In this document: piece after piece, positions 1,433-34,185 of the stretch
Position numbering within the stretch: the stretch's first letter is position 1
How the letters are laid out: each line of letters begins with the position of its first letter
DNA from: Candidatus Bathyarchaeia archaeon
Lineage (GTDB): Archaea; Thermoproteota; Bathyarchaeia; Bathyarchaeales; Bathycorpusculaceae
Length of the DNA stretch: 34,185 nt
Direction: 5' to 3'
NCBI GenBank assembly: GCA_049515895.1
Contig: JBEKTQ010000028.1
Coordinates: forward strand, 1-34,185
The notes under the pieces: model-generated
Seen by the model: the letters and a program-made list of their open reading frames with translations, nothing else
The model's database searches: none
What the model was told of the DNA's origin: nothing
Program-made: the position numbers and the translations under genes

Positions 1433-3424
1433 ATGATGGAGTTTCAATATTCAGAAAAGAAAAAAGTGAAACCACTCAACTTAAGGAACATACTGCATTC
1501 CATAAACCTCAGAAAGCTCACGATACCAGCGGCATTATGCCTCAGCGCACTCTTAATCCTGACAATGCTATCAGCGTTCTCATCCACTTCAGACAAAGCA
1601 ACAACAGCAGCACCTTTGCGTAGCGCGCGCTCTTCTCAACATCCAAATTATTCCGCTCCAGATGATCCGGCTGGCACTCTTTCGAGAACGATGTCACTTT
1701 ATGTAAATTATACTGCGACACCACTTGATTATGCTCCCACATTTGCAACGACAGTTTATTATAATGCTACACGAGGAGGAGAAACATCATTATTTTCCAT
1801 AGATATTATTGATTGGACTAATATTCAAGGGTACATATTCAGCACTAACGCAACTGGCAGCATGGTTAATTCAACTTACACCACGCTTTCGGGGTCTCCA
1901 ACTTCGGTGACGATTAATTCCACAGCAGTCATGCCGTCTCTTGGGAATTCTCTGCAGATTCAATGGTTCGCAAATGGCACTGATGGAACTTGGGGAAGTA
2001 GCCCAACATTTACTTATTTAAGCTACTCTGTAGCAGGAGGAACTTACGTTGCTGGCAACCAACTCTTTTACCCAAACGGAACGGTCTTAACTTTAACAGG
2101 TATGGTCTACACGTATTTCTTGGATAGTGAAGGCGGGTCATGGATGTATCCTGACGGTTCTGTCCATTGGCTAACTGACCCAATGGACACAACAGGTGTT
2201 GCAGATTTGCTTGATTTTACAGAGGCATGTAACTGTAACGTAATCAGATTGCATTTAACTGTGCAATACTGGTTAGATAACTTAGACAATTATCAGAGCA
2301 ATCTTGAATACTTCATAACTCAAGCAGCCAACAAAGGCATATACATTGATTTCGAGTTTTTCGCAGATTCATTCAATTCTACTTCTTACACTTTCAGCGG
2401 TGACCTTTGGCTTGGAGGTAATGGTGTATTAAACAGCACCGCTGATTTTGTGAATCTTTGGGGAAATACCAGCACGATCTTGAAAAACTACCCAAACGTC
2501 ATATTTGAACTGTGGAATGAACCGTCTCCACCAGATGCACCTGAAGCAACATGGATGAATGTAACGGAACAATGCATCGACAGAATACGTTCAACAGGTG
2601 CTATTCAACCGATAAACGTAATGTGGAACCAGGCAATTTACTACGATTTCGGTGACGGATACACTGGTGTAGGTGGTGCTGGTCGCACCATGAATTGGGT
2701 AACCGATTACCCGTTAAATGACCCATGCGGAAACCTAATTTACAGCACACACATATATCGTAACGACTTCTTCAATTCGTCAAACGGTTATCAGCAAATT
2801 TACAGCTACTTCGACATGAATTACGCTTTAACCTATTGTGGAGTTTATGGTGTTGCACAAAATCATCCACTTGTAATTTTCGAAATAGGTGCCAATCTAT
2901 GGGCATCAGACCCAACAAACGAAACAAACTGGCTGAACAATACTTTAACATGCCTTGACCAACACGGAATCGGCTACGCATACTTTGCTGCACCACCTTG
3001 GCGATCCGGAGCACAACAATGGGGTTTGGTCACAGAAAACCCAGACTTCACTTTAGACGCTGCGGGAGTAGTATTTATAGCTCACACGGGTGGAATGAAC
3101 TATACAGATTGGCTTACTCTTCAACAGCCAACTCCCACTCCTTCGCCGACTCCAACTCCCACTCCTTCGCCGACTCCAACTCCCACTCCTTCGCCGACTC
3201 CAACTCCCACCTCATTACAAACGCCGACATCTACTTCAACACCAACACCAGTTACAACACCGGTTTCAACACCAACCCTATCAGCATCACCAACACCGTT
3301 AACTACAGCTCCAATAGGTGGTGTTTCAACTGATACTGCGATCATCATAGCATCAGCTGTAGTATTAGTTATAGTGACGATTTCGTTCGGAGCATATGCG
3401 TACACAAAAAGAAGCAAAAAATAA
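1433..3424 (+). CDS. Membrane-anchored glycoside hydrolase family 5 (cellulase-like) protein
   Basis: GH5 motifs NVIRL, IFELWNEP (acid/base Glu), STHIY, VIFEIG (nucleophile Glu); N-terminal hydrophobic segment, PT linker, C-terminal TM plus basic tail (KRSKK). Confidence 0.85.
   Translation: MMEFQYSEKKKVKPLNLRNILHSINLRKLTIPAALCLSALLILTMLSAFSSTSDKATTAAPLRSARSSQHPNYSAPDDPAGTLSRTMSLYVNYTATPLDYAPTFATTVYYNATRGGETSLFSIDIIDWTNIQGYIFSTNATGSMVNSTYTTLSGSPTSVTINSTAVMPSLGNSLQIQWFANGTDGTWGSSPTFTYLSYSVAGGTYVAGNQLFYPNGTVLTLTGMVYTYFLDSEGGSWMYPDGSVHWLTDPMDTTGVADLLDFTEACNCNVIRLHLTVQYWLDNLDNYQSNLEYFITQAANKGIYIDFEFFADSFNSTSYTFSGDLWLGGNGVLNSTADFVNLWGNTSTILKNYPNVIFELWNEPSPPDAPEATWMNVTEQCIDRIRSTGAIQPINVMWNQAIYYDFGDGYTGVGGAGRTMNWVTDYPLNDPCGNLIYSTHIYRNDFFNSSNGYQQIYSYFDMNYALTYCGVYGVAQNHPLVIFEIGANLWASDPTNETNWLNNTLTCLDQHGIGYAYFAAPPWRSGAQQWGLVTENPDFTLDAAGVVFIAHTGGMNYTDWLTLQQPTPTPSPTPTPTPSPTPTPTPSPTPTPTSLQTPTSTSTPTPVTTPVSTPTLSASPTPLTTAPIGGVSTDTAIIIASAVVLVIVTISFGAYAYTKRSKK
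3128..3210 (+). repeat. Perfect 24-bp tandem repeat x3.5 (ccaactcccactccttcgccgact) encoding PTPTPSPT
   Basis: Units start at 3128, 3152, 3176 and a partial unit at 3200. Confidence 0.9.
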
Positions 3425-10736: not shown

Positions 10737-11987
10737 TCATGTTCTCAAGTACCGCATTCGAATTCTTTTAATCCTTTTCCTACGCGTGTAATCTTTCGCC
10801 AAGTTTTTAGCTTCTTTCATTCGCCTCATTTTGGTTACCTCGGGTACGCGGTCTTTCAATTTCAATGACGGAAGGTTTGGTCTTTCACAATATATGTACC
10901 AATTAATCCTATCGAAATATGAGTGGCTGAGTAGATTCATTGTTTTTTTGAAGTCGTCTTCTGTTTCTCCTGGGAATCCCAGCATTATACTAGTGAGTAT
11001 CCGTATGGATGGGTAGTTTTTGTCAATGTCTTGTATGGTTTTTTCCCAGTCGTCGAGGTTAAACGTCTTGCCCATTTGTTTCAATATTCTCTCACTTCCT
11101 GACTGGATGTGGCTGCCGATTTCGAATATCCTTTTTGATAATAGTTTTTTATCTAGTTTGGGGTACAGGGCGATTAAGGAATTTGGGGAAACGTTATTTA
11201 TTGATATTTTGTATTTATTGTCTGGATATGTCTCGGCTATCTTGTTCAATAGGTCAGCCAGAGTTAAGCCTATGTCATGACCGTAGCAACCAAGATCTCT
11301 CCCGACGAATTCGAAATGCATATAATTTGCTGCCAATCCAAGTTCGAATTGCCTGAGAATTGTTTCGATGGGTACATCTCTTGACCATCTATAGGCAAGA
11401 CGATCACTACAGTAGGTGCAGCAGTTCCTGCATCCGCTCACTATTTTTATGTACCACTTCTTATGCGTGTAGCTGTAGAGCTTATCAACCGTGAAGTCGA
11501 TTATTCGGTGGGGCGAGGAAAAAGTCACCTGAGAGTTTACTTGAGGATACAGAGCGTTGGCAAATACGAGGTTAGTTCTTTCCCTCGGTTGATTGAAAAG
11601 GTCTGCGAAGAAGTCCCACTCTTCTGGACCGAGGAGAGGACCGTCATAAATTGCTTGGATGGCCCCAGGATTTATTTTTGGAAGACAGCCCCACACTATT
11701 AGTCTTGCTGAGGGTTTTTTCAGCCTGTTTATCCTTTCGATGATTTGCGCAGATTCAACATCATGCATGTCAAGGTGGCCGCATGCGTAGAACAGGATGA
11801 AATCGGCCTGTCTAACATTGTTTGTGCATTTGAATCCTGCGTCTTTCGAGAGAAGTTTTAATCTTTGCGTGTCTAGCAACCCTTCTTCACAAGCGTTGCT
11901 TATGAAATGCACTTTGAGGGCCTTGGGAGACTGCAATGTTGTTCCCTTAGTTAATCTCGTTTTCTCGATTTCAAAACATCTATTCAA
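10737..11987 (-). CDS. MiaB-like (methylthiotransferase-type) radical SAM protein without TRAM domain
   Basis: N-terminal UPF0004-type Cys triad (NAC, YAC, WGC), CxxxCxxC (GCRNCCTYC), IQSGSERILKQM, GFPGETEDDF; ends before any TRAM domain. Confidence 0.85.
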   Translation of the reverse strand: MNRCFEIEKTRLTKGTTLQSPKALKVHFISNACEEGLLDTQRLKLLSKDAGFKCTNNVRQADFILFYACGHLDMHDVESAQIIERINRLKKPSARLIVWGCLPKINPGAIQAIYDGPLLGPEEWDFFADLFNQPRERTNLVFANALYPQVNSQVTFSSPHRIIDFTVDKLYSYTHKKWYIKIVSGCRNCCTYCSDRLAYRWSRDVPIETILRQFELGLAANYMHFEFVGRDLGCYGHDIGLTLADLLNKIAETYPDNKYKISINNVSPNSLIALYPKLDKKLLSKRIFEIGSHIQSGSERILKQMGKTFNLDDWEKTIQDIDKNYPSIRILTSIMLGFPGETEDDFKKTMNLLSHSYFDRINWYIYCERPNLPSLKLKDRVPEVTKMRRMKEAKNLAKDYTRRKRIKRIRMRYLRT

Positions 11988-12524
11988 CTTTGTTTGAGCG
12001 CTGCCTTGTCCCTGTAATAGTTAAAGTTATCTTTTTGGACTATCCAAGTAATAGACTAATTCTTGAGAACATCGCAAGGGCGGTCTGAGCGTTTGCGTTC
12101 CAGGTTTTCCCAATTCATTGGTAAAGTGCGAACAATTCCGTAAGAGGTTAAACAGCTCAGATTTGCCCTCAAATCAAAAAATAAGAGTCATAACCATTTT
12201 ATTCCAATTTCGGGACAAGCCAGCGTGCGCTACAGGAGTACCTCAGCATTTATAATCTTACTAAGGCGCTGGTTGAGACAGCAATACCAAAGATAGGGAA
12301 CAATGAAGCCCGATCTCAGGATCGAGACGTGATATTTGTCGTAATGCATGAGGTTAAGTTAAAGTCGAATATCATAAATTGAGTGCGCGCGCTATACCTG
12401 CTTTAGAGTGAAGTCTGCAAAATCACAAATGGTCGGTGCGTTCAAAAACTTTACCTCTCCGTTTAAGAATCAAGTAATTTACCTAGAAACTGGTCCATTT
12501 TCATTTGCCTAGCGCGTTCGTTGA

Positions 12525-13637
12525 TTAGAAAGTCATTTGTTTGTAAATATTGGAGAGCTTTTTCACTTGTGTTTCCAAAGAAAAGTTATTGATTACTTGT
12601 TTTCTTCCTTCTCGCCCAAACTCAACTATGTCATCCTTATTCTCGAGCAAGCGCTGTATTGCGTTTGCTAGTTCCGCCGGTTCATTTCGAGACGTTAGGA
12701 TGCCAGTATTATAATTTCTTACGATTTCCGGAATTCCTCCTACAGGTGTTGCTACCACCGGAGTCTCACATGCAAGAGCCTCTAAGATAGTCATTGGAAA
12801 GGCTTCGTTGAACGAAGGTAAAACAAAGAGGGATGCTTTTTGATACCATTTTGCTATTTCAATATTGTCCATTGGGCCCAAATATGTTATCTTGTGTTTT
12901 CCTCTTCGATTTTCATCTTCGATGAGCCCCAAAATATAGGGCCGATAGTTGTTATCCATTGGACCAATAATAGCGAGTTGCACAGGTTTTTCTATATAGC
13001 GCAGAGCATTGACGAGCATATGTACTCCTTTGTTAGCCGTTACTCGCCCTACAAACAATAAGAGGTTGTCTATTTTTGATCCGTAAGGCTTGAATATGTT
13101 AACGTCTACGCCATTTGGCAGGTAGAAAATTCTGTTTCTGTTAATGCCTAAGGATACCATTTCATTTGTCATTTGACGTGATATGGAGATGCAGTAGTCT
13201 GGCAAGTGCTTCATTAACATGTGACTGATCCAATATCTTCTTAGAAATTGCACATCGAGACCGTGGCAGTGCAGAATTTTCGGCTTTCTTACTAATGATG
13301 AAAATAAGGGAAAACTGAATTCCAACTCGTGATAATGAAGTATGTCGTATTTGCTTAGGATGTTTGTAAATCTACTTGGAATAAGGTTTACTCTCATAGT
13401 AAGTCTGTGCGAGCGAAGAGCCCATAGAAGATTTAAGGCTGGAATCTTGTATACGGAAAAACCATCGTTGTTTTCTGTTTTTCCTTGCCAACTGGGAGTT
13501 CGCCATTGATCGGTGTTAAAGGTCAAAACATCGGTAGGAATATTGGCTTTGTTAAGGAGCATAGAAAGATTTCGAACAACGGTTTCTGTCCCGCCTTTTA
13601 CGGGGAAATAACAAGGTGTGATCATCAAGACGCGCAA
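12525..13637 (-). CDS. Glycosyltransferase family 4
   Basis: GGTE, PNGVD, FVGR...KG, E.FPMTILEALACETPVV motif. Confidence 0.9.
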   Translation of the reverse strand: MRVLMITPCYFPVKGGTETVVRNLSMLLNKANIPTDVLTFNTDQWRTPSWQGKTENNDGFSVYKIPALNLLWALRSHRLTMRVNLIPSRFTNILSKYDILHYHELEFSFPLFSSLVRKPKILHCHGLDVQFLRRYWISHMLMKHLPDYCISISRQMTNEMVSLGINRNRIFYLPNGVDVNIFKPYGSKIDNLLLFVGRVTANKGVHMLVNALRYIEKPVQLAIIGPMDNNYRPYILGLIEDENRRGKHKITYLGPMDNIEIAKWYQKASLFVLPSFNEAFPMTILEALACETPVVATPVGGIPEIVRNYNTGILTSRNEPAELANAIQRLLENKDDIVEFGREGRKQVINNFSLETQVKKLSNIYKQMTF

Positions 13638-13699
13638 TAAAATACCTTCGTTAAGCTTTTGTCTGTCTTTGGATAATTCTCCGCTGTGATTTGTGGTTA

Positions 13700-14638
13700 T
13701 TATTTAATTTGAAAAAACTCTTTGAAATGTGCGTAAATAAATCTGGGGGTGTATTTGAAGTATTTCTGGGGCCATATGATGCTTGTTTCATAACACAGTT
13801 GCACTTGGTCTTGAGTGATTGTCAGTTCTTTTGATGATGTCATCAAATTTGAGTTTATCTCCAGCAGTCCCGCACTCCGCAACTTCGAGATTTGCTTGAG
13901 AAGTAACTCGAATTTTTGGAACATTGCGCGTGTTTCTTTGGCAGACCTTAGAGGTACTCTCAGTAGTTTGGATGGGTTGCCCATGTAGTAAATAGAATCC
14001 CACATTTTCTGGTGCATGAATTGCGTGGGATGTAGATCAAGAACGGCAATTTTTCGCTTTAGAACCGCGGATAATAAACATTGATAATCATGCCGAGTGC
14101 CAAACCAATGCTGCATGAACGTGTCTGGATAGAAAGTTATTCCTTTATATCGAACTGGTTCAGATGTAGTGATGCTTGAAGAAAAGTCAAATTCTATGCC
14201 CAGATTAGATAATGCCTCCAAATTTGGAGGAGTCCAGCTCATCCCGGGGGCGCGGTAAGCTCTTATCCTTTTTGGTTTGAAAAGTTCCTGAAGTACGTAT
14301 ATTCCGCCTTCTCGTTCTGCTTTTCCTGTCAATGGGTTTATGTGTGCGGTTTCTCTCTTTAATGAGATTAGATAAGCTTGTTTGTAGCTTCGTAAATCGG
14401 CATACTCTGCAATTAATGGACGAACCGAATGTCCAGATGAGTGAAAGCCTATTTCATGATTTCTAAGTAGTTCCAAGATTTCTGGGAAATTGCCTAGTTT
14501 TTCAGCCATGTGTCCGCTAATAAAGAATATGCCTTTCAATTCGTATTTTTCCAGCATCTCCAAAAAAGTTCTGAGTGCACTTATTTCGTTTGCGCTCACG
14601 AAATCTTCAACATCAAATGTTAACATTAGCTTGTGCAT
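13700..14638 (-). CDS. Polysaccharide deacetylase family protein
   Basis: LTFDVED, HEIGFHSSGH, YRAPG, DLHP NodB-like motifs. Confidence 0.8.
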   Translation of the reverse strand: MHKLMLTFDVEDFVSANEISALRTFLEMLEKYELKGIFFISGHMAEKLGNFPEILELLRNHEIGFHSSGHSVRPLIAEYADLRSYKQAYLISLKRETAHINPLTGKAEREGGIYVLQELFKPKRIRAYRAPGMSWTPPNLEALSNLGIEFDFSSSITTSEPVRYKGITFYPDTFMQHWFGTRHDYQCLLSAVLKRKIAVLDLHPTQFMHQKMWDSIYYMGNPSKLLRVPLRSAKETRAMFQKFELLLKQISKLRSAGLLEINSNLMTSSKELTITQDQVQLCYETSIIWPQKYFKYTPRFIYAHFKEFFQIK

Positions 14639-14882
14639 GACATCTCACCTGTAAATGACTTAAAAATAAACTGTGCTTCTGCTTGTATCCTATTATTTGC
14701 CCCGTTTGTTCTGTTTCCTAAAGGAAGGCTAACAGTTTTTAAAGAAGTCAACTAATTCCCGATTTTTTGATCGGCCCTAGCGTGAATTGTTGTTTCGAAA
14801 TTGGTCAAAATTATCATATTCCATTTCTTGCTGTCTGTCCATTGCGCGCGCGACGCGTACTATTCGCTGATTTCTTTTTTGT

Positions 14883-16046
14883 TTAATGTGTTAGTGCGTC
14901 TAGATAAACGTTCAAAGTTCTCTTGGCAATAGCATCCCAAGAGATTTCTATTGCGTGTTTTCGGGCAGCATTTCCTAACTCTTTTCTTAAGTCAGGTTTG
15001 TTCATGAGTTTCAGAATAGCATCGGCTAGAGCCTCTGGGTCGTTTGGAGGAATTAGAATACTGCAGTCTTTTGAGTATTCAGTTGTTCCTCCAATGTTTG
15101 TCGCGATTACTGGTGTTGCGTTTGCCATTGCTCGCGTGAGAATACTGCTTCCATGAACAGGTTTTGTGTAGATAGCAAAAGTGAACATGCTCTCTTGCAT
15201 TTTTCTGTCAAATTCGTCTTCGCTCAGTCTTCCGCCCCAAACAATGCAATCCTTCACGCCCAATTCTTCAGCGCGAACATCCGCAGATTCATTTTCTGAT
15301 GCACTATAAATCCCGTAAAAATGAACCAGAATCTTTTTTCCTTTTTTCTTCAGTATTTTTAGTGCTTCGAAAAGGACGAATACACCTTTTCCTTCTACGG
15401 GAGCTCCGAAGAAAGTTATTTCATTCCTTTCTTTAGATAATAGGGTAGGAATCTTCGCTCCGTGAGGAATGACTGTTATTATAGAAGCGTCTGTCCCAAT
15501 TGAGATCAAGCTTTCTCTCATTTCTTTTGAGTGTACTGTTATCCTATCCGCTTTGTTGTATATTTGCTTATATATTACCTTGAGTACTTTTAGCCCCCAC
15601 ATAGTTTTGTCTATTTCATGGGCTGTTATGATTTTCTTATTGGAGGTGGGGATCAACATAATTGGGAACAATGGCAGCATCCCAAGTGAATAAACACTCT
15701 GCTGATAATGAATGACATCATATGATTTGCATTTAGCAAGATAACCGACTCCGCGTAGGAATTGTAAGGAAACTTGAAGAACCACATTAAGTACACGGCT
15801 TACTGGGTTCTTGGGGTATGTGTAAACATATGGTGGGAAGTTGACAAATTGACAGTTTTTGTCATGTAGCTTGTTCTCTACTCCGGTGAATCTTGAGCGC
15901 GCGCAAAAGCAATGGGAAGACACAACGCTCACAAGAACAAAGGGAAGTTTTTCAAGGCTATCTCGTAGATTGTAGGAATAATTAGTCACGGACAAATCCG
16001 TGTACCAACATGTTATGAGTCCGATTTTTATGGTCAAATTTCTCAA
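14883..16046 (-). CDS. Glycosyltransferase family 4
   Basis: ITAHE, IPHG, FFG...KG, AMANATPVIATNIGG, SWDAIA. Confidence 0.85.
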   Translation of the reverse strand: MRNLTIKIGLITCWYTDLSVTNYSYNLRDSLEKLPFVLVSVVSSHCFCARSRFTGVENKLHDKNCQFVNFPPYVYTYPKNPVSRVLNVVLQVSLQFLRGVGYLAKCKSYDVIHYQQSVYSLGMLPLFPIMLIPTSNKKIITAHEIDKTMWGLKVLKVIYKQIYNKADRITVHSKEMRESLISIGTDASIITVIPHGAKIPTLLSKERNEITFFGAPVEGKGVFVLFEALKILKKKGKKILVHFYGIYSASENESADVRAEELGVKDCIVWGGRLSEDEFDRKMQESMFTFAIYTKPVHGSSILTRAMANATPVIATNIGGTTEYSKDCSILIPPNDPEALADAILKLMNKPDLRKELGNAARKHAIEISWDAIAKRTLNVYLDALTH

Positions 16047-16112
16047 TCACCAACGTTTTAGATCCTATTAATAATCAGCACACGCGAAAGTTGACTTCAA
16101 CACATTGTGAAC

Positions 16113-16283
16113 CTACAATCGCGCGACGCGCGTAAAGCAGATTACGAAGCTTCTTCCTCTCTTTTGTCCAATTACCCATTCTCGATCTTCTTCATCTGTT
16201 AGAACAGACTTTGCATATTCCTCGAATTCTTCCTCAGAGCGCATCTCACTCATTCTGTTTATTCTCAGGTATGCTATCGGCAC
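16113..16283 (-). CDS. Small hypothetical protein, 56 aa (below the ORF-track cutoff)
   Basis: GTG start preceded by GAGGAG; MPIAYLRINRMSEMRSEEEFEEYAKSVLTDEEDREWVIGQKRGRSFVICFTRVARL*. Confidence 0.45.
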   Translation of the reverse strand: MPIAYLRINRMSEMRSEEEFEEYAKSVLTDEEDREWVIGQKRGRSFVICFTRVARL

Positions 16284-16365
16284 AAAATTCTCCTCTGTTT
16301 AGCGCGCACTAGTCTAATTCTCTCACATTTTCCCATCATTATGATCAAAACGTCCATTTGCTATG

Positions 16366-17373
16366 TTAAAGGTCAATCTCATCTATTTCTTGTATCAACT
16401 TTAGTGCGCGTCCGTTAAACAAGTTGTAATACCATCCGACGGTAAGCTCCAAACCCTCCTCCAAACTGACCCGCGGTTCGTATCCTATTAGAGTCTTGGC
16501 GAGGAGATTAGAACCGAAAAATCTTCGAACGTCCCCAGGGCGTCTATCCGTGTAAATTGCAGGCTTATTATAGTTCATTAGTTTGGCGATTCGCGACAGA
16601 AGATCTTTGATTGTAGTTTCTCCGCCGCTGGCAATGTTCAATACTTTGCCTCTCGTTGCTTTCACATCATATATCCTAATCGTAGCATCAACCAAATCTG
16701 ATACATACGTAAAATCTCTAGTCTGTAGTCCATCACCATGGATTATCGGTGGCTTCCGATGGATGATTCTTCTTATGTTTAGCGGTATTACAGCTGAATA
16801 AAATTTTTCGTTCTGTCTAGGACCGAAGGCGTTGAAGGGTCTTACTATCGATACATCAATCCCAAATGTTAGAATGTAAGACAGAACAAGGTGATCAGAC
16901 GCTATTTTGCTTGCGCCATAAGGCGTGGTTGGATTCAAGGGGTGTTCCTCAGTCATAGGCACATCAATGGCGTCTCCATATGCTTCAGAGGAGGAATAGT
17001 GAATGAGAGTTCTGTAATACCCCTTTCTCGCTAGCTCGCATAAAACTGAGGTGAGTTTCACATTTGTGTCATAAGCCAACTTCGGCTTACTTAGACACTC
17101 GGGCAATGGAACAATAGCCAGGTTGAAGACGACATCAACACTTTCCTTTTCTAGGATGGACTCCATCCGACTCATTCTAGTTGCGTTCTGCCTGTATACT
17201 TTCAGCTCAGGGTAATTCTGTTTTGCCAAAACCAAATTTCTCTCCTTACCAAGAGAAAAATCGTCGACAACAACAAGATTATCCGGTTTTTCCTTTATTA
17301 TTCGATCTACCAAATGGCTACCAATAAAACCAGCGCCGCCAGTTACCAGGACGGATTTGTTTTTCAAGCTCAT
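16366..17373 (-). CDS. NAD-dependent nucleotide-sugar epimerase/dehydratase (extended SDR)
   Basis: TGGAGFIGSH, SSSEAYG, YGASK, RPFNAFGP, GDGLQTRDFTYV. Confidence 0.92.
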   Translation of the reverse strand: MSLKNKSVLVTGGAGFIGSHLVDRIIKEKPDNLVVVDDFSLGKERNLVLAKQNYPELKVYRQNATRMSRMESILEKESVDVVFNLAIVPLPECLSKPKLAYDTNVKLTSVLCELARKGYYRTLIHYSSSEAYGDAIDVPMTEEHPLNPTTPYGASKIASDHLVLSYILTFGIDVSIVRPFNAFGPRQNEKFYSAVIPLNIRRIIHRKPPIIHGDGLQTRDFTYVSDLVDATIRIYDVKATRGKVLNIASGGETTIKDLLSRIAKLMNYNKPAIYTDRRPGDVRRFFGSNLLAKTLIGYEPRVSLEEGLELTVGWYYNLFNGRALKLIQEIDEIDL

Positions 17374-17493
17374 ATATGATCACCGGAGTAATGGTCACTT
17401 TTTGTTTACATCAGCCAAAGAAATAGGAATCCCCTTTTTGGGCGACTCGACGCGCGCGTGGCTGTTCCGAAATTTGGTCAAAAATGGTTTTTA

Positions 17494-17868
17494 TTAGGCG
17501 ACTTTAGGTATCTGCGGACAATTTCGCGAATTGCATCCGGTTTTGGTCTCTTTGCAAAAGCCACCTTTCTCAAACCTGCGCAGATGCTTTAGGCGGGAGA
17601 AAGGAAGATGGACAAGCTCAATTGAAGAGTCTAAGAGTGCGGCAGAAACCTGCTTCTTAGCTTTAGGCGGGACGTCATAAACATACTTTGGCCTCCCAAG
17701 ACCTGGAGAAACTATTTTTTCCCGCGCTAATACACCTTCGCTTAACAATTTCTTAATATGCAGTTTTAGAGTGTTGTGAGAAAACCCCACCTCATCAAGG
17801 AGATCAGTGAAAGGTTTTGGCTTCCCAATCTTCAAAACAGAGAGAGTTCGCTCATCGATGATATCCAT
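17494..17868 (-). CDS. ArsR-like winged-helix protein with Cys-rich C-terminus
   Basis: FTDLLDEVGFSHNTLKLHIKKLLSEG...GRPKYVY wHTH; C-terminal CKETKTGCNSRNCP. Confidence 0.8.
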   Translation of the reverse strand: MDIIDERTLSVLKIGKPKPFTDLLDEVGFSHNTLKLHIKKLLSEGVLAREKIVSPGLGRPKYVYDVPPKAKKQVSAALLDSSIELVHLPFSRLKHLRRFEKGGFCKETKTGCNSRNCPQIPKVA

Positions 17869-17890
17869 GATTAAACCATGTCAAAACGGA

Positions 17891-17905
17891 CTTAAAACCA
17901 TTTTT
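17891..17905 (-). promoter_or_regulatory. Putative BRE/TATA promoter inside the right inverted repeat
   Basis: Minus strand AAAAATGG-TTTTAAG ending 23 nt before ATG 17868, the usual spacing for a leaderless archaeal transcript. Confidence 0.45.
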
Positions 17906-17936
17906 AGCCAATTTTAGGAACAAACATGCGCGCTAC

Positions 17937-19040
17937 TTAGCGTATAATTTCCTTAAGACCTGATATCAAATGATCCGATATTTCCTCGCTTGTTATTGGA
18001 TATCTGTGCCAGTCTATCCATATGGACTCGTCGCGCAATTTTTCAGCTGTTGGACACTTTCTGGCGAAACGTTGGTAAAAAGGTAATTCATAAAGAAGCC
18101 CAGAATATCCTCCTCCTATGGTTCTTCTAGGTATTCCATTGTCAAGTCCTTTCATTTTAAGGGCTTCTAAGAAACTGTCTCTAGACATACCAGCTTTCTC
18201 ATCCAGAAAACGACACCCAATAATGTAGCAGGCGGACTTCATGTAGCTAGGTGGTTGTGGAAGTTCTAAACAATCAGGAAGAACAGAAGCTATGAACTTA
18301 GCATTTCGAATCTGCCAGTCAACTTGGAACTGTAAGCTATCCATTTGGAGAAGCCCAACAGCTGCTTGGAGGTCTGACATACGGAAGTTAAAACACAGAT
18401 AATTTGCCCCATTTTTTTCTCCATGATTTCGGATGTTTCTACATTTCTCAGCAATCCTATCATCGTTAGTAACTATCATCCCCCCCTCACCGGTGCTTAT
18501 CATCTTGGTCATATCTCCTCCAAGACTGAAACACCCAACAACACCGACGCGTCCAACCTTTTGTCCTTTGTACTCTGCTCCTAACGCCTGGGAACAATCT
18601 TCAATTATAGGAACACCACTGGGAAACTCGTCTAATTCACACGGCATACCCAGCTGATGAGCAGCAACAATACCTTTAAGTGGGTTTTTCCGAAGGCTTT
18701 TTTGCAGCTCTTTTGGATTAATGTTACCCTGTTTGTCTACATCATTGAACATGGGAACGGCTCCAGCGAGTAGTATTGGAGCCACAGATCCGATGTGCGT
18801 GTAGGGTGAGACCGCCACTAGGTCGCCTTGCCCTATCCCGCAAGCACGCAAAGCAACGTAGATGCTGGCAGAACCGTTTGAAACAGCTATCGCGTGTTTG
18901 GCTCCAATATACTCTGCGAACTTACGCTCAAATTCCAGCAAATATGGACCGCCATTAGGTGATCTCCACCAGCCACACAAGCGTCCACTCTTTAACAATT
19001 CTATAACGCAGGACCAATCGATGTTGCCAAGTATTGCCAT
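17937..19040 (-). CDS. DegT/DnrJ/EryC1/StrS PLP-dependent sugar aminotransferase
   Basis: FERKFAEYIG, VSNGS, IEDCSQALG, FS...KMISTGEGGM (PLP Lys), NFRMSDLQAAVG. Confidence 0.9.
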   Translation of the reverse strand: MAILGNIDWSCVIELLKSGRLCGWWRSPNGGPYLLEFERKFAEYIGAKHAIAVSNGSASIYVALRACGIGQGDLVAVSPYTHIGSVAPILLAGAVPMFNDVDKQGNINPKELQKSLRKNPLKGIVAAHQLGMPCELDEFPSGVPIIEDCSQALGAEYKGQKVGRVGVVGCFSLGGDMTKMISTGEGGMIVTNDDRIAEKCRNIRNHGEKNGANYLCFNFRMSDLQAAVGLLQMDSLQFQVDWQIRNAKFIASVLPDCLELPQPPSYMKSACYIIGCRFLDEKAGMSRDSFLEALKMKGLDNGIPRRTIGGGYSGLLYELPFYQRFARKCPTAEKLRDESIWIDWHRYPITSEEISDHLISGLKEIIR

Positions 19041-33299: not shown

Positions 33300-33366
33300 C
33301 TTTGAGATAACTCCGAAAACCCGACTATTATTAGGTGATAGTTATCTTCTTATATTTGAAGCGCGC

Positions 33367-34185
33367 CAGTTTGTTGCTAAATTATTTGCATTGACATTTT
33401 CATGCTGAACAGATTTGTATTTGATCGAGTTCTTGTTCTATTATGGAGAAGAATGAAAGTTCTTGCTCCATTTTGCGGAGTTTAAACCTGGACGACATAG
33501 AAGAGACCCTGTCAGAAGCTTACCACCAGGAGGGCGCGGGCAGACCTCCAAGAAAACCCATCGGCATTTTCAAAGCACTCATAGTCAAAAGAGTCAAACA
33601 GATACCAAGCGACAGAGAACTCTATAGGCGGTTGTGGAATGATGAAGATTTAAGAGAAGTCTGCGATATCGAAGAATACGAAAAGCCCTACCATCCTTCT
33701 CAGTTAACACGCTTTAGGAACCGCGTTGGAGTGACCAGGCTTGAGAGAATTATGGATCATCTGGTTGACGAGTTGATTAAAAACAAACTGATTGCTGGCA
33801 AACAGGTGGTTTTCGACGCTACTTTCGTTAAGGCTTACAGCCGGCGTGATCCTCATGACAACAGCAAAGGAGCTTCAGATCCTGAGGCAAGGGTAGGCAG
33901 AAACGGCAAGACTTACGAGCTTGGTTACAAACTGCACGTGGCAGTAGATGCGAAGTCCGAGTTGCCTTTGACTGTTATTGCAGCACCAGCTAATGATAAT
34001 GAGAAGAAGCATGCTCCGACACTTTTTGAGAAGGCTTTGAGGTCGACGAATAAGAGAGTGGAGCTTTTGGTCGCTGACTCTCAGTATTCATGCCGAGGCC
34101 AGAGAGAGCAAGCGTCCAACTCTGGCGTGAAGGCTGTGATTCCTTATCCTGCGAATCAGATGAGGCAGCAGAAGGGACTTTTGAG
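33367..34185 (+). mobile_element. IS5/IS1182-like insertion sequence, left part (truncated by window end)
   Basis: Begins right after GCGCGC (33361-33366) with CAGTTTGTTGCTAAATT and is followed by a transposase ORF; the end position is inferred from similarity to the 17458-17927 termini. Confidence 0.7.
33443..34185 (+). CDS. DDE transposase (DUF772-like N-terminus plus DDE_Tnp_1 core), partial
   Basis: Manual translation: MEKNESS...GRPPRKP...SDRELYRRL...HPSQLTRFRNR...VFDATFVKAYS...DPEARVG...GYKLHVAVD...PANDNE...LVADSQY; open to window end. Confidence 0.88.
   Translation, partial: MEKNESSCSILRSLNLDDIEETLSEAYHQEGAGRPPRKPIGIFKALIVKRVKQIPSDRELYRRLWNDEDLREVCDIEEYEKPYHPSQLTRFRNRVGVTRLERIMDHLVDELIKNKLIAGKQVVFDATFVKAYSRRDPHDNSKGASDPEARVGRNGKTYELGYKLHVAVDAKSELPLTVIAAPANDNEKKHAPTLFEKALRSTNKRVELLVADSQYSCRGQREQASNSGVKAVIPYPANQMRQQKGLL

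Follow-up and report, generated by a model that had tools for sequence, protein, structure and literature searches.

A winged-helix gene between IS5-like ends: a probable non-autonomous transposable cassette family of Bathyarchaeia

Mobile insertion cassettes (MICs), for example the Bacillus cereus element MIC231, which is mobilized by the insertion sequence (IS) IS231, are the described systems closest to the locus reported here. Among autonomous elements, the targets of IS5 and IS427 are YTAR or TA, and InsA of IS1 and OrfA of IS911 are IS-encoded end-binding repressors that form part of the transposase reading frame. Bathyarchaeia are uncultured archaea that abound in peat and sediments, and to our knowledge their mobile DNA is almost undescribed. 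We analyzed a window of 34,185 nucleotides, which is one whole contig (C28) of a 3.18-Mb, 53-contig metagenome-assembled genome (MAG) of Bathyarchaeia from peat; metagenome runs in which this DNA was found came from peat and wetland. The unit at positions 17452-17933 (482 bp) of the window carries a single gene for a 124-aa winged-helix protein between inverted repeats, and we consider it, with a probability of about 0.8, one copy of a ~481-bp non-autonomous transposable cassette family of Bathyarchaeia.

The term MIC is used in passages of PMC3129680 and PMC3281130, and at the sequence level the cassette appears to be of the kind that these passages describe, with IS-like terminal inverted repeats (TIRs), no internal transposase, a passenger gene and several unrelated contexts. 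As in MICs, one passenger gene lies between IS-type TIRs, and mobilization in trans by a resident cognate IS is presumed. The cassette differs from MICs in its archaeal host, in a partner that is IS5-like and not IS4/IS231, in a passenger that is always the same conserved, presumed DNA-binding protein with its likely binding sites as a second inner module of both arms, and in outer modules that appear to have been swapped between IS subgroups. Archaeal MITEs (miniature inverted-repeat transposable elements) are listed for Sulfolobus and Haloquadratum in a section of PMC10969869. Cassette copies resemble prokaryotic MITEs in being small, multi-copy and mostly intergenic with IS-derived TIRs, and deleted derivatives of 163-233 bp are MITE-like. 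The full cassette, however, encodes a conserved 124-aa protein under purifying selection and for that reason falls outside the strict definition of a MITE.

The partner IS resembles IS5 and IS1182 in its DDE_Tnp_1 and DUF772 transposase of ~330 aa, its length of ~1.1 kb and its short TIRs, but it scores under the NCBIfam cut-offs and its apparent target is an alternating-GC tract. Like InsA and OrfA, the cassette protein is a small helix-turn-helix (HTH) protein within the element that would bind the ends and its own promoter, whereas it is unrelated to the transposase and lies in an element without one. It shares fold and size with the Lrs14/AbfR regulators and differs from them in an extra C-terminal H-x-C...C-x6-C-x4-CPQ motif and in being carried by a mobile cassette. 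The literature searched contained no description of Bathyarchaeia IS or cassettes, nor of a two-layer modular terminus. The strings 'Bathyarchae', 'passenger' and 'insertion cassette' are absent from the main text of a 2026 archaeal IS survey (PMC13343696), and 'Bathyarchae' is absent from the article text of a 2024 MITE census (PMC11602168).

The repeat search placed the two arms at 17452-17491 and 17894-17933 (40 nt each, 33 of 40 positions or 83 % complementary, 402 nt between them). When the region 17200-18200 was shuffled 200 times by mononucleotide, the best 40-nt inverted repeat had 23.4 matches on average and 27 at most. Both arms have GCGCGC at their outer edge (17452-17457 and 17928-17933), and a 29-nt core, identical at 25 of 29 positions, begins 5 nt inside this hexamer. 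Apart from the 124-aa gene (17494-17868, minus strand), no open reading frame (ORF) of 50 aa or more lies between the arms, and there is no transposase gene. The stop codon of the 124-aa gene (17494-17496) is 2 nt from the arm end at 17491. Some 25 nt ahead of its ATG, a TATA-like TTTTAAGT (17890-17897, minus strand) spans the inner boundary of the other arm, a spacing that would give a nearly leaderless mRNA.

Most of this layout had been described in a first-pass annotation of the same DNA, which had reported 29-bp repeats set 5 nt inside GCGCGC, a winged-HTH gene filling the space between them with its stop 2 bp from one repeat, and a likely TATA box inside the other. These features were recovered, with arms that extend to 40 nt and a TATA-like sequence across the arm boundary. 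The proposal of a non-autonomous passenger-gene element without transposase between an aminotransferase and an epimerase gene is likewise supported by the results below. The unit was divided as follows.

17452-17457, no strand assigned: GCGCGC hexamer at the stop-codon (3') end; probably a 3-4-bp target duplication plus GC-tract context, the outer positions varying among near-identical IS and cassette copies
17452-17477, plus strand: outer TIR module in the 3' arm, made up of the hexamer, 5 nt and TGTTCC GAAATT; similar to the right end of IS-A, an IS subgroup described below, and a putative recognition site for the transposase
17472-17491, plus strand: inner repeat module in the 3' arm, where a motif scan gave a pair of TGGT-containing repeats ~10 bp apart
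17494-17868, minus strand: passenger gene, 124-aa winged helix with a C-terminal His/Cys motif; from the ORF, alignment, structure model and ratio of nonsynonymous to synonymous substitutions (dN/dS)
17869-17897, minus strand: short upstream region with the TATA-like TTTTAAGT; presumed promoter of the passenger gene
17894-17913, minus strand: inner repeat module of the 5' arm (AATTGGCTAAAAATGGTT); from the repeat search, motif scan and comparison of repeat types
17908-17933, minus strand: outer TIR module in the 5' arm, made up of the hexamer, 5 nt and TGTTCC TAAAA; resembling the IS-A left end

Four copies of the gene were found by tblastn in different contexts of the same genome, namely the window copy, one on C12 (54 % aa), one on C26 (49 % aa) and one on C18 that is cut by the contig end. 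Arms and hexamers are the same in all of them, and the DNA beyond is unrelated. The frame of the C12 copy is broken within a poly-T run, and the C26 copy contains in-frame TGA and TAG. The arm-profile search of this genome returned additional solo or paired arms, and a gene-less element of 165 bp is present at C26:45870-46034. The upstream region 17869-17897 is conserved ahead of the paralogs on C12 and C18 and in other genomes.

Other genomes contributed 76 loci, of which 72 are titled Bathyarchaeota or Bathyarchaeia; their MAG sources are peat, palsa and wetland, and many copies are situated at contig ends. When 68 arms were aligned at the hexamer, GCGCGC was observed in 52 and the six positions further out showed no preference. 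Metagenome contigs with the same arms part from the window exactly at 17452 and 17933/17935. Spans were obtained for 46 arm pairs: 40 measure 461-483 bp, four 163-197 bp, and the remaining two 499 and 623 bp. An ORF of 115-140 aa is kept in 22 full-size elements and broken in 17 (~44 % of 39, a number in which one sequence is counted twice). In L009, the nearest relative of the window copy (94 % nt identity), the ORF is broken and measures 33 aa. Distribution of the gene is patchy: in a sample of 301 genomes of the class it was found in 26, each with one to four matches, and it was found in 17 of the 107 genera. Multiple copies per genome and conserved TIRs with GCGCGC in unrelated contexts had been named by the first-pass annotation as signs of mobility; both were seen, and the case for mobility now extends to gene-less derivatives and to a partner IS that carries a transposase and shares the outer ends.

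Some copies occur in unusual surroundings. Three loci (L020, L038 and L074) are on short contigs (1.5-12 kb) of MAGs labelled as bacterial (Deltaproteobacteria, Thermodesulfovibrionales and Desulfaltia), for which mis-binning seems likelier than transfer. One IMG/VR contig contains a cassette copy with a different outer end and ATGG repeats; a single contig is too little to claim spread by viruses. In the window's own genome, C11:14100-17800 contains nested and abutting IS and cassette fragments, with two IS ends that meet at ~14126, an internally deleted IS and a truncated cassette arm.

Many of the arm-profile matches cover the outer ~25 nt of the arm only. Such matches bound two complete IS of ~1.1 kb in the own genome (C10:118396-119505 and C10:120126-121247), each with one ORF of 329-333 aa. 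The partner transposase matches DDE_Tnp_1 (PF01609, 1.3e-24) and an N-terminal DUF772 (PF05598, 5.1e-14), both over the Pfam cut-offs, and by these domains the element is IS5-like, without placement in a named subgroup. A third IS subgroup, IS-A (1078 bp, L010:3869-4946), lies ~450 bp from a cassette and has the core TGTTCC as in the window cassette. After the hexamer, the promoter-side (5') arm of the window cassette matches the IS-A left end at 15 of 18 positions and the stop-side (3') arm matches the IS-A right end at 16 of 18, so that the gene occupies the place of the transposase gene in the same orientation. In the relative G164, the resident IS and both cassettes have a common TCTTGC core.

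At a threshold of E 1e-25, the transposase was found in 55 of the same 301 genomes, that is, in 19 of the 26 cassette-positive and 36 of the 275 cassette-negative genomes; no statistical test was applied to this co-occurrence because related genomes are not independent. The window itself ends inside an IS of this kind (see the list below), the ORF of which (33443-34183) matches DDE_Tnp_1 (1.2e-14) and DUF772 (3.3e-13), and this IS is a candidate source of transposase acting in trans. The same list gives two further arm-bearing sequences in the window.

33361-34185, plus strand: IS5-like IS, left end and first 247 codons (hexamer, CAGTT, TGTTGC); truncated where the contig ends; from the arm match and ORF 33443-34183, the 3' end of which is open
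11996-12228, plus strand: second cassette copy, degenerate and internally deleted, 233 bp; from an nhmmer arm match (12229-12180, E 4e-8) and the sequence
14780-14812, plus strand: solo degenerate arm (GCGTGA, 5 nt, TGTTTC GAAATTGGTCAAAATT); nhmmer E 0.091, weak; a GC tract lies ~35 nt further

Still present in the 233-bp copy are the two arms, with a TGTCCC core, and the final codons of the gene, which read …ICPQIKK stop; the solo arm is probably a remnant of another cassette copy. Contigs C26, C34, C36 and C45 of the own genome begin inside copies of the same IS family. Since the window contig ends, and several others start, inside IS copies, the IS break the assembly, and the assembly consequently under-counts them. 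A fourth, more distant IS with a DDE transposase was seen at C12:83501-84561 (332-aa ORF, 29 % identical to IS-A), the end of which is also GCGCGC; in the relative G047, a truncated cassette abuts an IS of this type with one hexamer common to both.

The nature of the GC hexamer was examined in recent IS copies. Of the elements tabulated in PMC3281130, those of the IS5 group have direct repeats of 4 or 6 bp, IS1182 elements have 4 bp, and members of the IS427 group have 2 bp except for one with 4 bp. In G164, seven IS copies of 1138 bp have left ends identical over 60 nt, and five right ends are identical over 24 nt. Their hexamers vary mostly at the outer positions (left CAACGC in one copy; right ACGCGC twice, GCGCGG and GCGCGT). 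A 4-bp duplication fits six of the seven copies, a 3-bp duplication of CGC, with the right end one base longer, fits all seven, and a 6-bp duplication fits three. Four near-identical cassette 3' ends in one MAG read GCGCGC, GCGCGC, GCGCGT and GCGTGC, and two abutting elements use a single common hexamer. The hexamer is thus read as probably a 3-4-bp target duplication plus GC-tract context, and under the 3-bp or the 4-bp model the target before insertion would be an alternating-GC tract of ~8 nt; tracts of this kind occur in the own genome 88 times with a length of 8 nt and 14 times with one of 10 nt. The first-pass annotation had taken GCGCGC for a target-site duplication or the outermost part of the TIR. 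The recent IS copies favor a shorter, inner duplication of 3-4 bp set in a GC tract, a reading that is provisional for the window copy. We also considered TA as the duplication and rejected it, as TA stands ahead of the hexamer in only 31 of 68 arms and intact IS copies have non-matching outside dinucleotides; TA outside the hexamer is at most a target preference.

The passenger protein was compared with known families. Matches to Pfam HTH_20 and HTH_24 fall under the cut-off, and the NCBIfam matches (Lrs14, Sta1 and SufR) are all weak and far under theirs, with Lrs14 NF040939 at 34.8 bits against 90 (E 1.3e-8). An AlphaFold2 model from a 30-sequence alignment (mean predicted local distance difference test score, pLDDT, of 70.8) has the H-H-H-E-E-H order of a winged helix, with a C-terminus of low confidence (pLDDT <50). 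The top Foldseek matches to this model are AbfR2/Lrs14, MarR and PadR regulators, the best being AbfR2 (6cmv_C, E 6.4e-4), and by the model the likeness to the Lrs14 family is one of fold only. Invariant or near-invariant blocks in the alignment are FSHNTL, GRP and the C-terminal H-x-C-RFEKGG-x-C-K-x5-C-x4-CPQ. The first Cys of this His/Cys motif, Cys97, is Cys in at least 90 % of the 30 aligned sequences and Arg in the window copy. For the Cys motif, Rrf2-type Fe-S winged-helix regulators offer an analogy; the Rrf2 family was not among the Pfam and NCBIfam matches at the thresholds used, and no dedicated Rrf2 test was made.

Clustered at 90 % identity, the family falls into 89 clusters. When it is clustered at 50 % identity, the representatives number 173 with a threshold of E <=1e-10 and 533 with one of E <=1e-3, many of them fragments. 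Among intact genes, the median dN/dS is 0.18 (39 of 210 pairs, those with dS 0.05-1.5), and the passenger gene is shown by this comparison to be under purifying selection. No catalytic or transposase domain was detected in the protein by Pfam, NCBIfam or Foldseek. Derivation from the N-terminus of the transposase was rejected (hhalign probability 0.3 %).

The inner ~20 nt of each cassette arm hold two TGGT-containing repeats ~10 bp apart, which IS ends do not have, and these repeats persist across cassette lineages in which synonymous sites are saturated. Recognition motifs and repeat types were compared in 52 distinct near-full-length ORFs. Of the 46 with an S[HRY][NI]T-like, THNT or unclassified motif, 45 have ATGG-type repeats and one is a tie, while AGAY-type repeats accompany all six ORFs with an xR[SAQ]T motif. 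The outer module is independent of this split, as the CAG..GTTGC outer subtype is seen with both repeat types. Two loci with near-identical proteins (L013 and L014) differ in one outer arm, and on the protein tree the outer-core label changes at least 17 times where the minimum possible is 5, a count made with labels from a crude regular expression, some of which are wrong. Because they are absent from IS ends and differ between the recognition-helix clades, the inner repeats are probably the operators of the cassette protein itself, and the outer module would be an exchangeable transposase site. The first-pass annotation had raised the possibility that the repeats act only as operator sites; this appears true of the inner part of the arm, alongside mobility and not instead of it.

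Units similar to the inner repeats were also seen elsewhere in the own genome. Homologous intergenic stretches at C1:125950-126010, C5:8415-8480 and C31:790-880 have 5-7 tandem 10-bp units (TGGTTA plus an A-rich spacer) that resemble them, followed by a common ~60-nt sequence. Next to the C1 stretch is a tRNA gene with a partial second copy of its 3' end.

We propose the following mechanism from these comparisons. The outer ~25 nt of the arms (GC hexamer, 5 nt, TGTYSC-AAAT core) copy the left and right ends of ~1.1-kb IS5-like IS, the DDE transposase of which would, in trans, cut and paste the cassette into alternating-GC tracts with duplication of 3-4 bp. The comparisons show the architecture, the copy number, sharp boundaries and decay, the ends common to cassette and IS, co-occurrence with the transposase and purifying selection; movement in trans, the exact duplication, and binding by the protein with its effects are inferred from them. 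The support for movement in trans is indirect and consists of the co-occurrence and of one insertion/replacement polymorphism of a derivative. The winged-helix protein most likely binds the inner repeats at both ends. Binding at the 5' arm would repress its own promoter, and binding might in addition protect the ends or offer them to the transposase. A more ambitious version, in which the cassette is a hyperparasite of IS5-like elements whose end-binding protein helps to capture the IS transposase and whose swapped outer modules let it exploit several IS subgroups, is tentative and in our view rather unlikely.

Several observations weigh against a mobile cassette or against parts of this mechanism. 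No direct repeat is visible outside the hexamer, and among cassettes with hexamer variants one pair is equal in direct and one in inverted orientation, so that the duplication is ambiguous for cassettes. The association of recognition helix and repeat type rests on one clade (99/97 support), which contains all six xR[SAQ]T ORFs, and hence on a single evolutionary change. The partner transposase stays under the NCBIfam cut-offs (IS5_4 122.9 against 140 bits, IS1182 150.5 against 270). The own assembly contains only end remnants of the IS-A subgroup, with a best transposase identity to IS-A of 44-50 %, and seven of the 26 cassette-positive genomes have no transposase match at E 1e-25. A clean empty site was not found for any cassette copy, and the empty site with a single GC tract in relatives, which the first-pass annotation had named as a further sign of mobility, did not appear. 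When metagenome contigs were scanned for an exact pattern of the two window flanks set 0-12 nt apart, there were 0 matches; no contig from four peat or wetland runs (placed on 16800-18600) joins 17451 to 17934, and no ortholog of the aminotransferase in the flanking glycan cluster was found at E 1e-60 in 60 genomes of the genus.

Related searches gave the following results. No DNA match to the window flanks was found in 40 relatives, and a search of the five closest genomes for orthologous flanks of the gene copies on C12 and C26 found none. In two metagenome contigs the arms are joined with the gene missing (17493>17892 and 17495>17883); these contigs probably come from gene-less relatives elsewhere and are not likely to be excision products. 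The best case for insertion is the 165-bp derivative at C26:45870-46034 (L100:2071-2235), which replaces 344 nt of a small gene that is intact in G056:C4 (L106) and, read from its translation, probably codes for a small membrane protein. The relative G056 is 81-95 % identical on both sides, and the homology breaks at the two ends of the element. By this alignment, the difference is a replacement with deletion and not a simple insertion, and in that respect it counts against the mobile reading. Two apparent empty sites proved false: for L113 and C12:84437 the common flank is the end of another transposase-bearing IS ending in GCGCGC, and for L032 and C20 it is another repeated element inserted in the 5' arm.

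With no empty site found, the inverted repeats might be mere operators of an ordinary, autoregulated family of paralogous regulators and the unit immobile, a view in keeping with inner repeats that resemble protein-binding sites, with a repeat type that differs between two recognition-helix clades and with a 5' arm that overlaps the presumed promoter. However, homology stops sharply at the hexamer in unrelated contexts, gene-less derivatives exist, ~44 % of the copies (17 of 39) are broken and many lie at contig ends. The outer arms are common to transposase-bearing IS, the distribution is patchy and the gene co-occurs with the transposase. We regard an immobile regulator family as very improbable. 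That the small protein is itself the recombinase of an autonomous unit would account for its constant place between the arms, its purifying selection and its conserved His/Cys motif. This is hardly credible for a protein of 124 aa with a plain regulator fold, no detected catalytic domain and no profile similarity to the transposase, in a unit whose outer ends copy those of an IS with a DDE transposase. We dropped an integron cassette or att-type unit, since the two ends are IS ends in mirror image; attC-like sites were not searched for.

A closer contest concerns the window copy alone. The family may be or have been mobile while this copy is a dead relic, with a damaged protein and no cognate transposase, and to this we give slightly less than even odds. 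The Arg at Cys97, the lack of a close IS-A transposase in an assembly with IS-A-type end remnants only, the divergence of the arms to 33 of 40 and the broken ORF of L009 all point this way, and the copy may be inactive given that residue and the absence of a close transposase of its own TIR subtype. On the other hand, its 124-aa ORF is intact, the genome contains two further IS subgroups, similar in their outer ends, that could cross-mobilize it, and the IS copies at contig ends imply that the assembly under-counts IS.

The cassette is located inside a gene cluster for surface-glycan synthesis. It is flanked by a gene for a DegT-type aminotransferase (17937-19040; PF01041, E 2.6e-68) and one for an NAD epimerase (16366-17373; PF01370, E 6.9e-53), has the same orientation as both, and lies 3 nt past the aminotransferase stop and 78 nt ahead of the epimerase start. 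Its position could affect the expression of the downstream epimerase gene. The inner module of the 3' arm (17472-17491) overlaps a sense-strand oligo-T run just past the stop codon of the passenger gene. No Rfam match was found at E up to 1 within 11500-18500.

The elements are of interest for several reasons. They define an IS5-like group that appears to prefer alternating-GC targets, together with a non-autonomous partner that always carries the same regulator, and natural variation separates the transposase-recognition module from the probable operator module within one arm. They also offer a practical explanation for contig breaks and for scattered small regulators of the 'ArsR/Lrp/HxlR-like' kind in Bathyarchaeia MAGs. 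If the protein binds the ends, the cassette would be a compact model of non-autonomous elements competing for transposase, and its ends would be candidate parts for archaeal genetic tools.

Elsewhere in the window, Tandem Repeats Finder reported tandem repeats with periods of 12-30 nt at 97-287 and 3128-3210.

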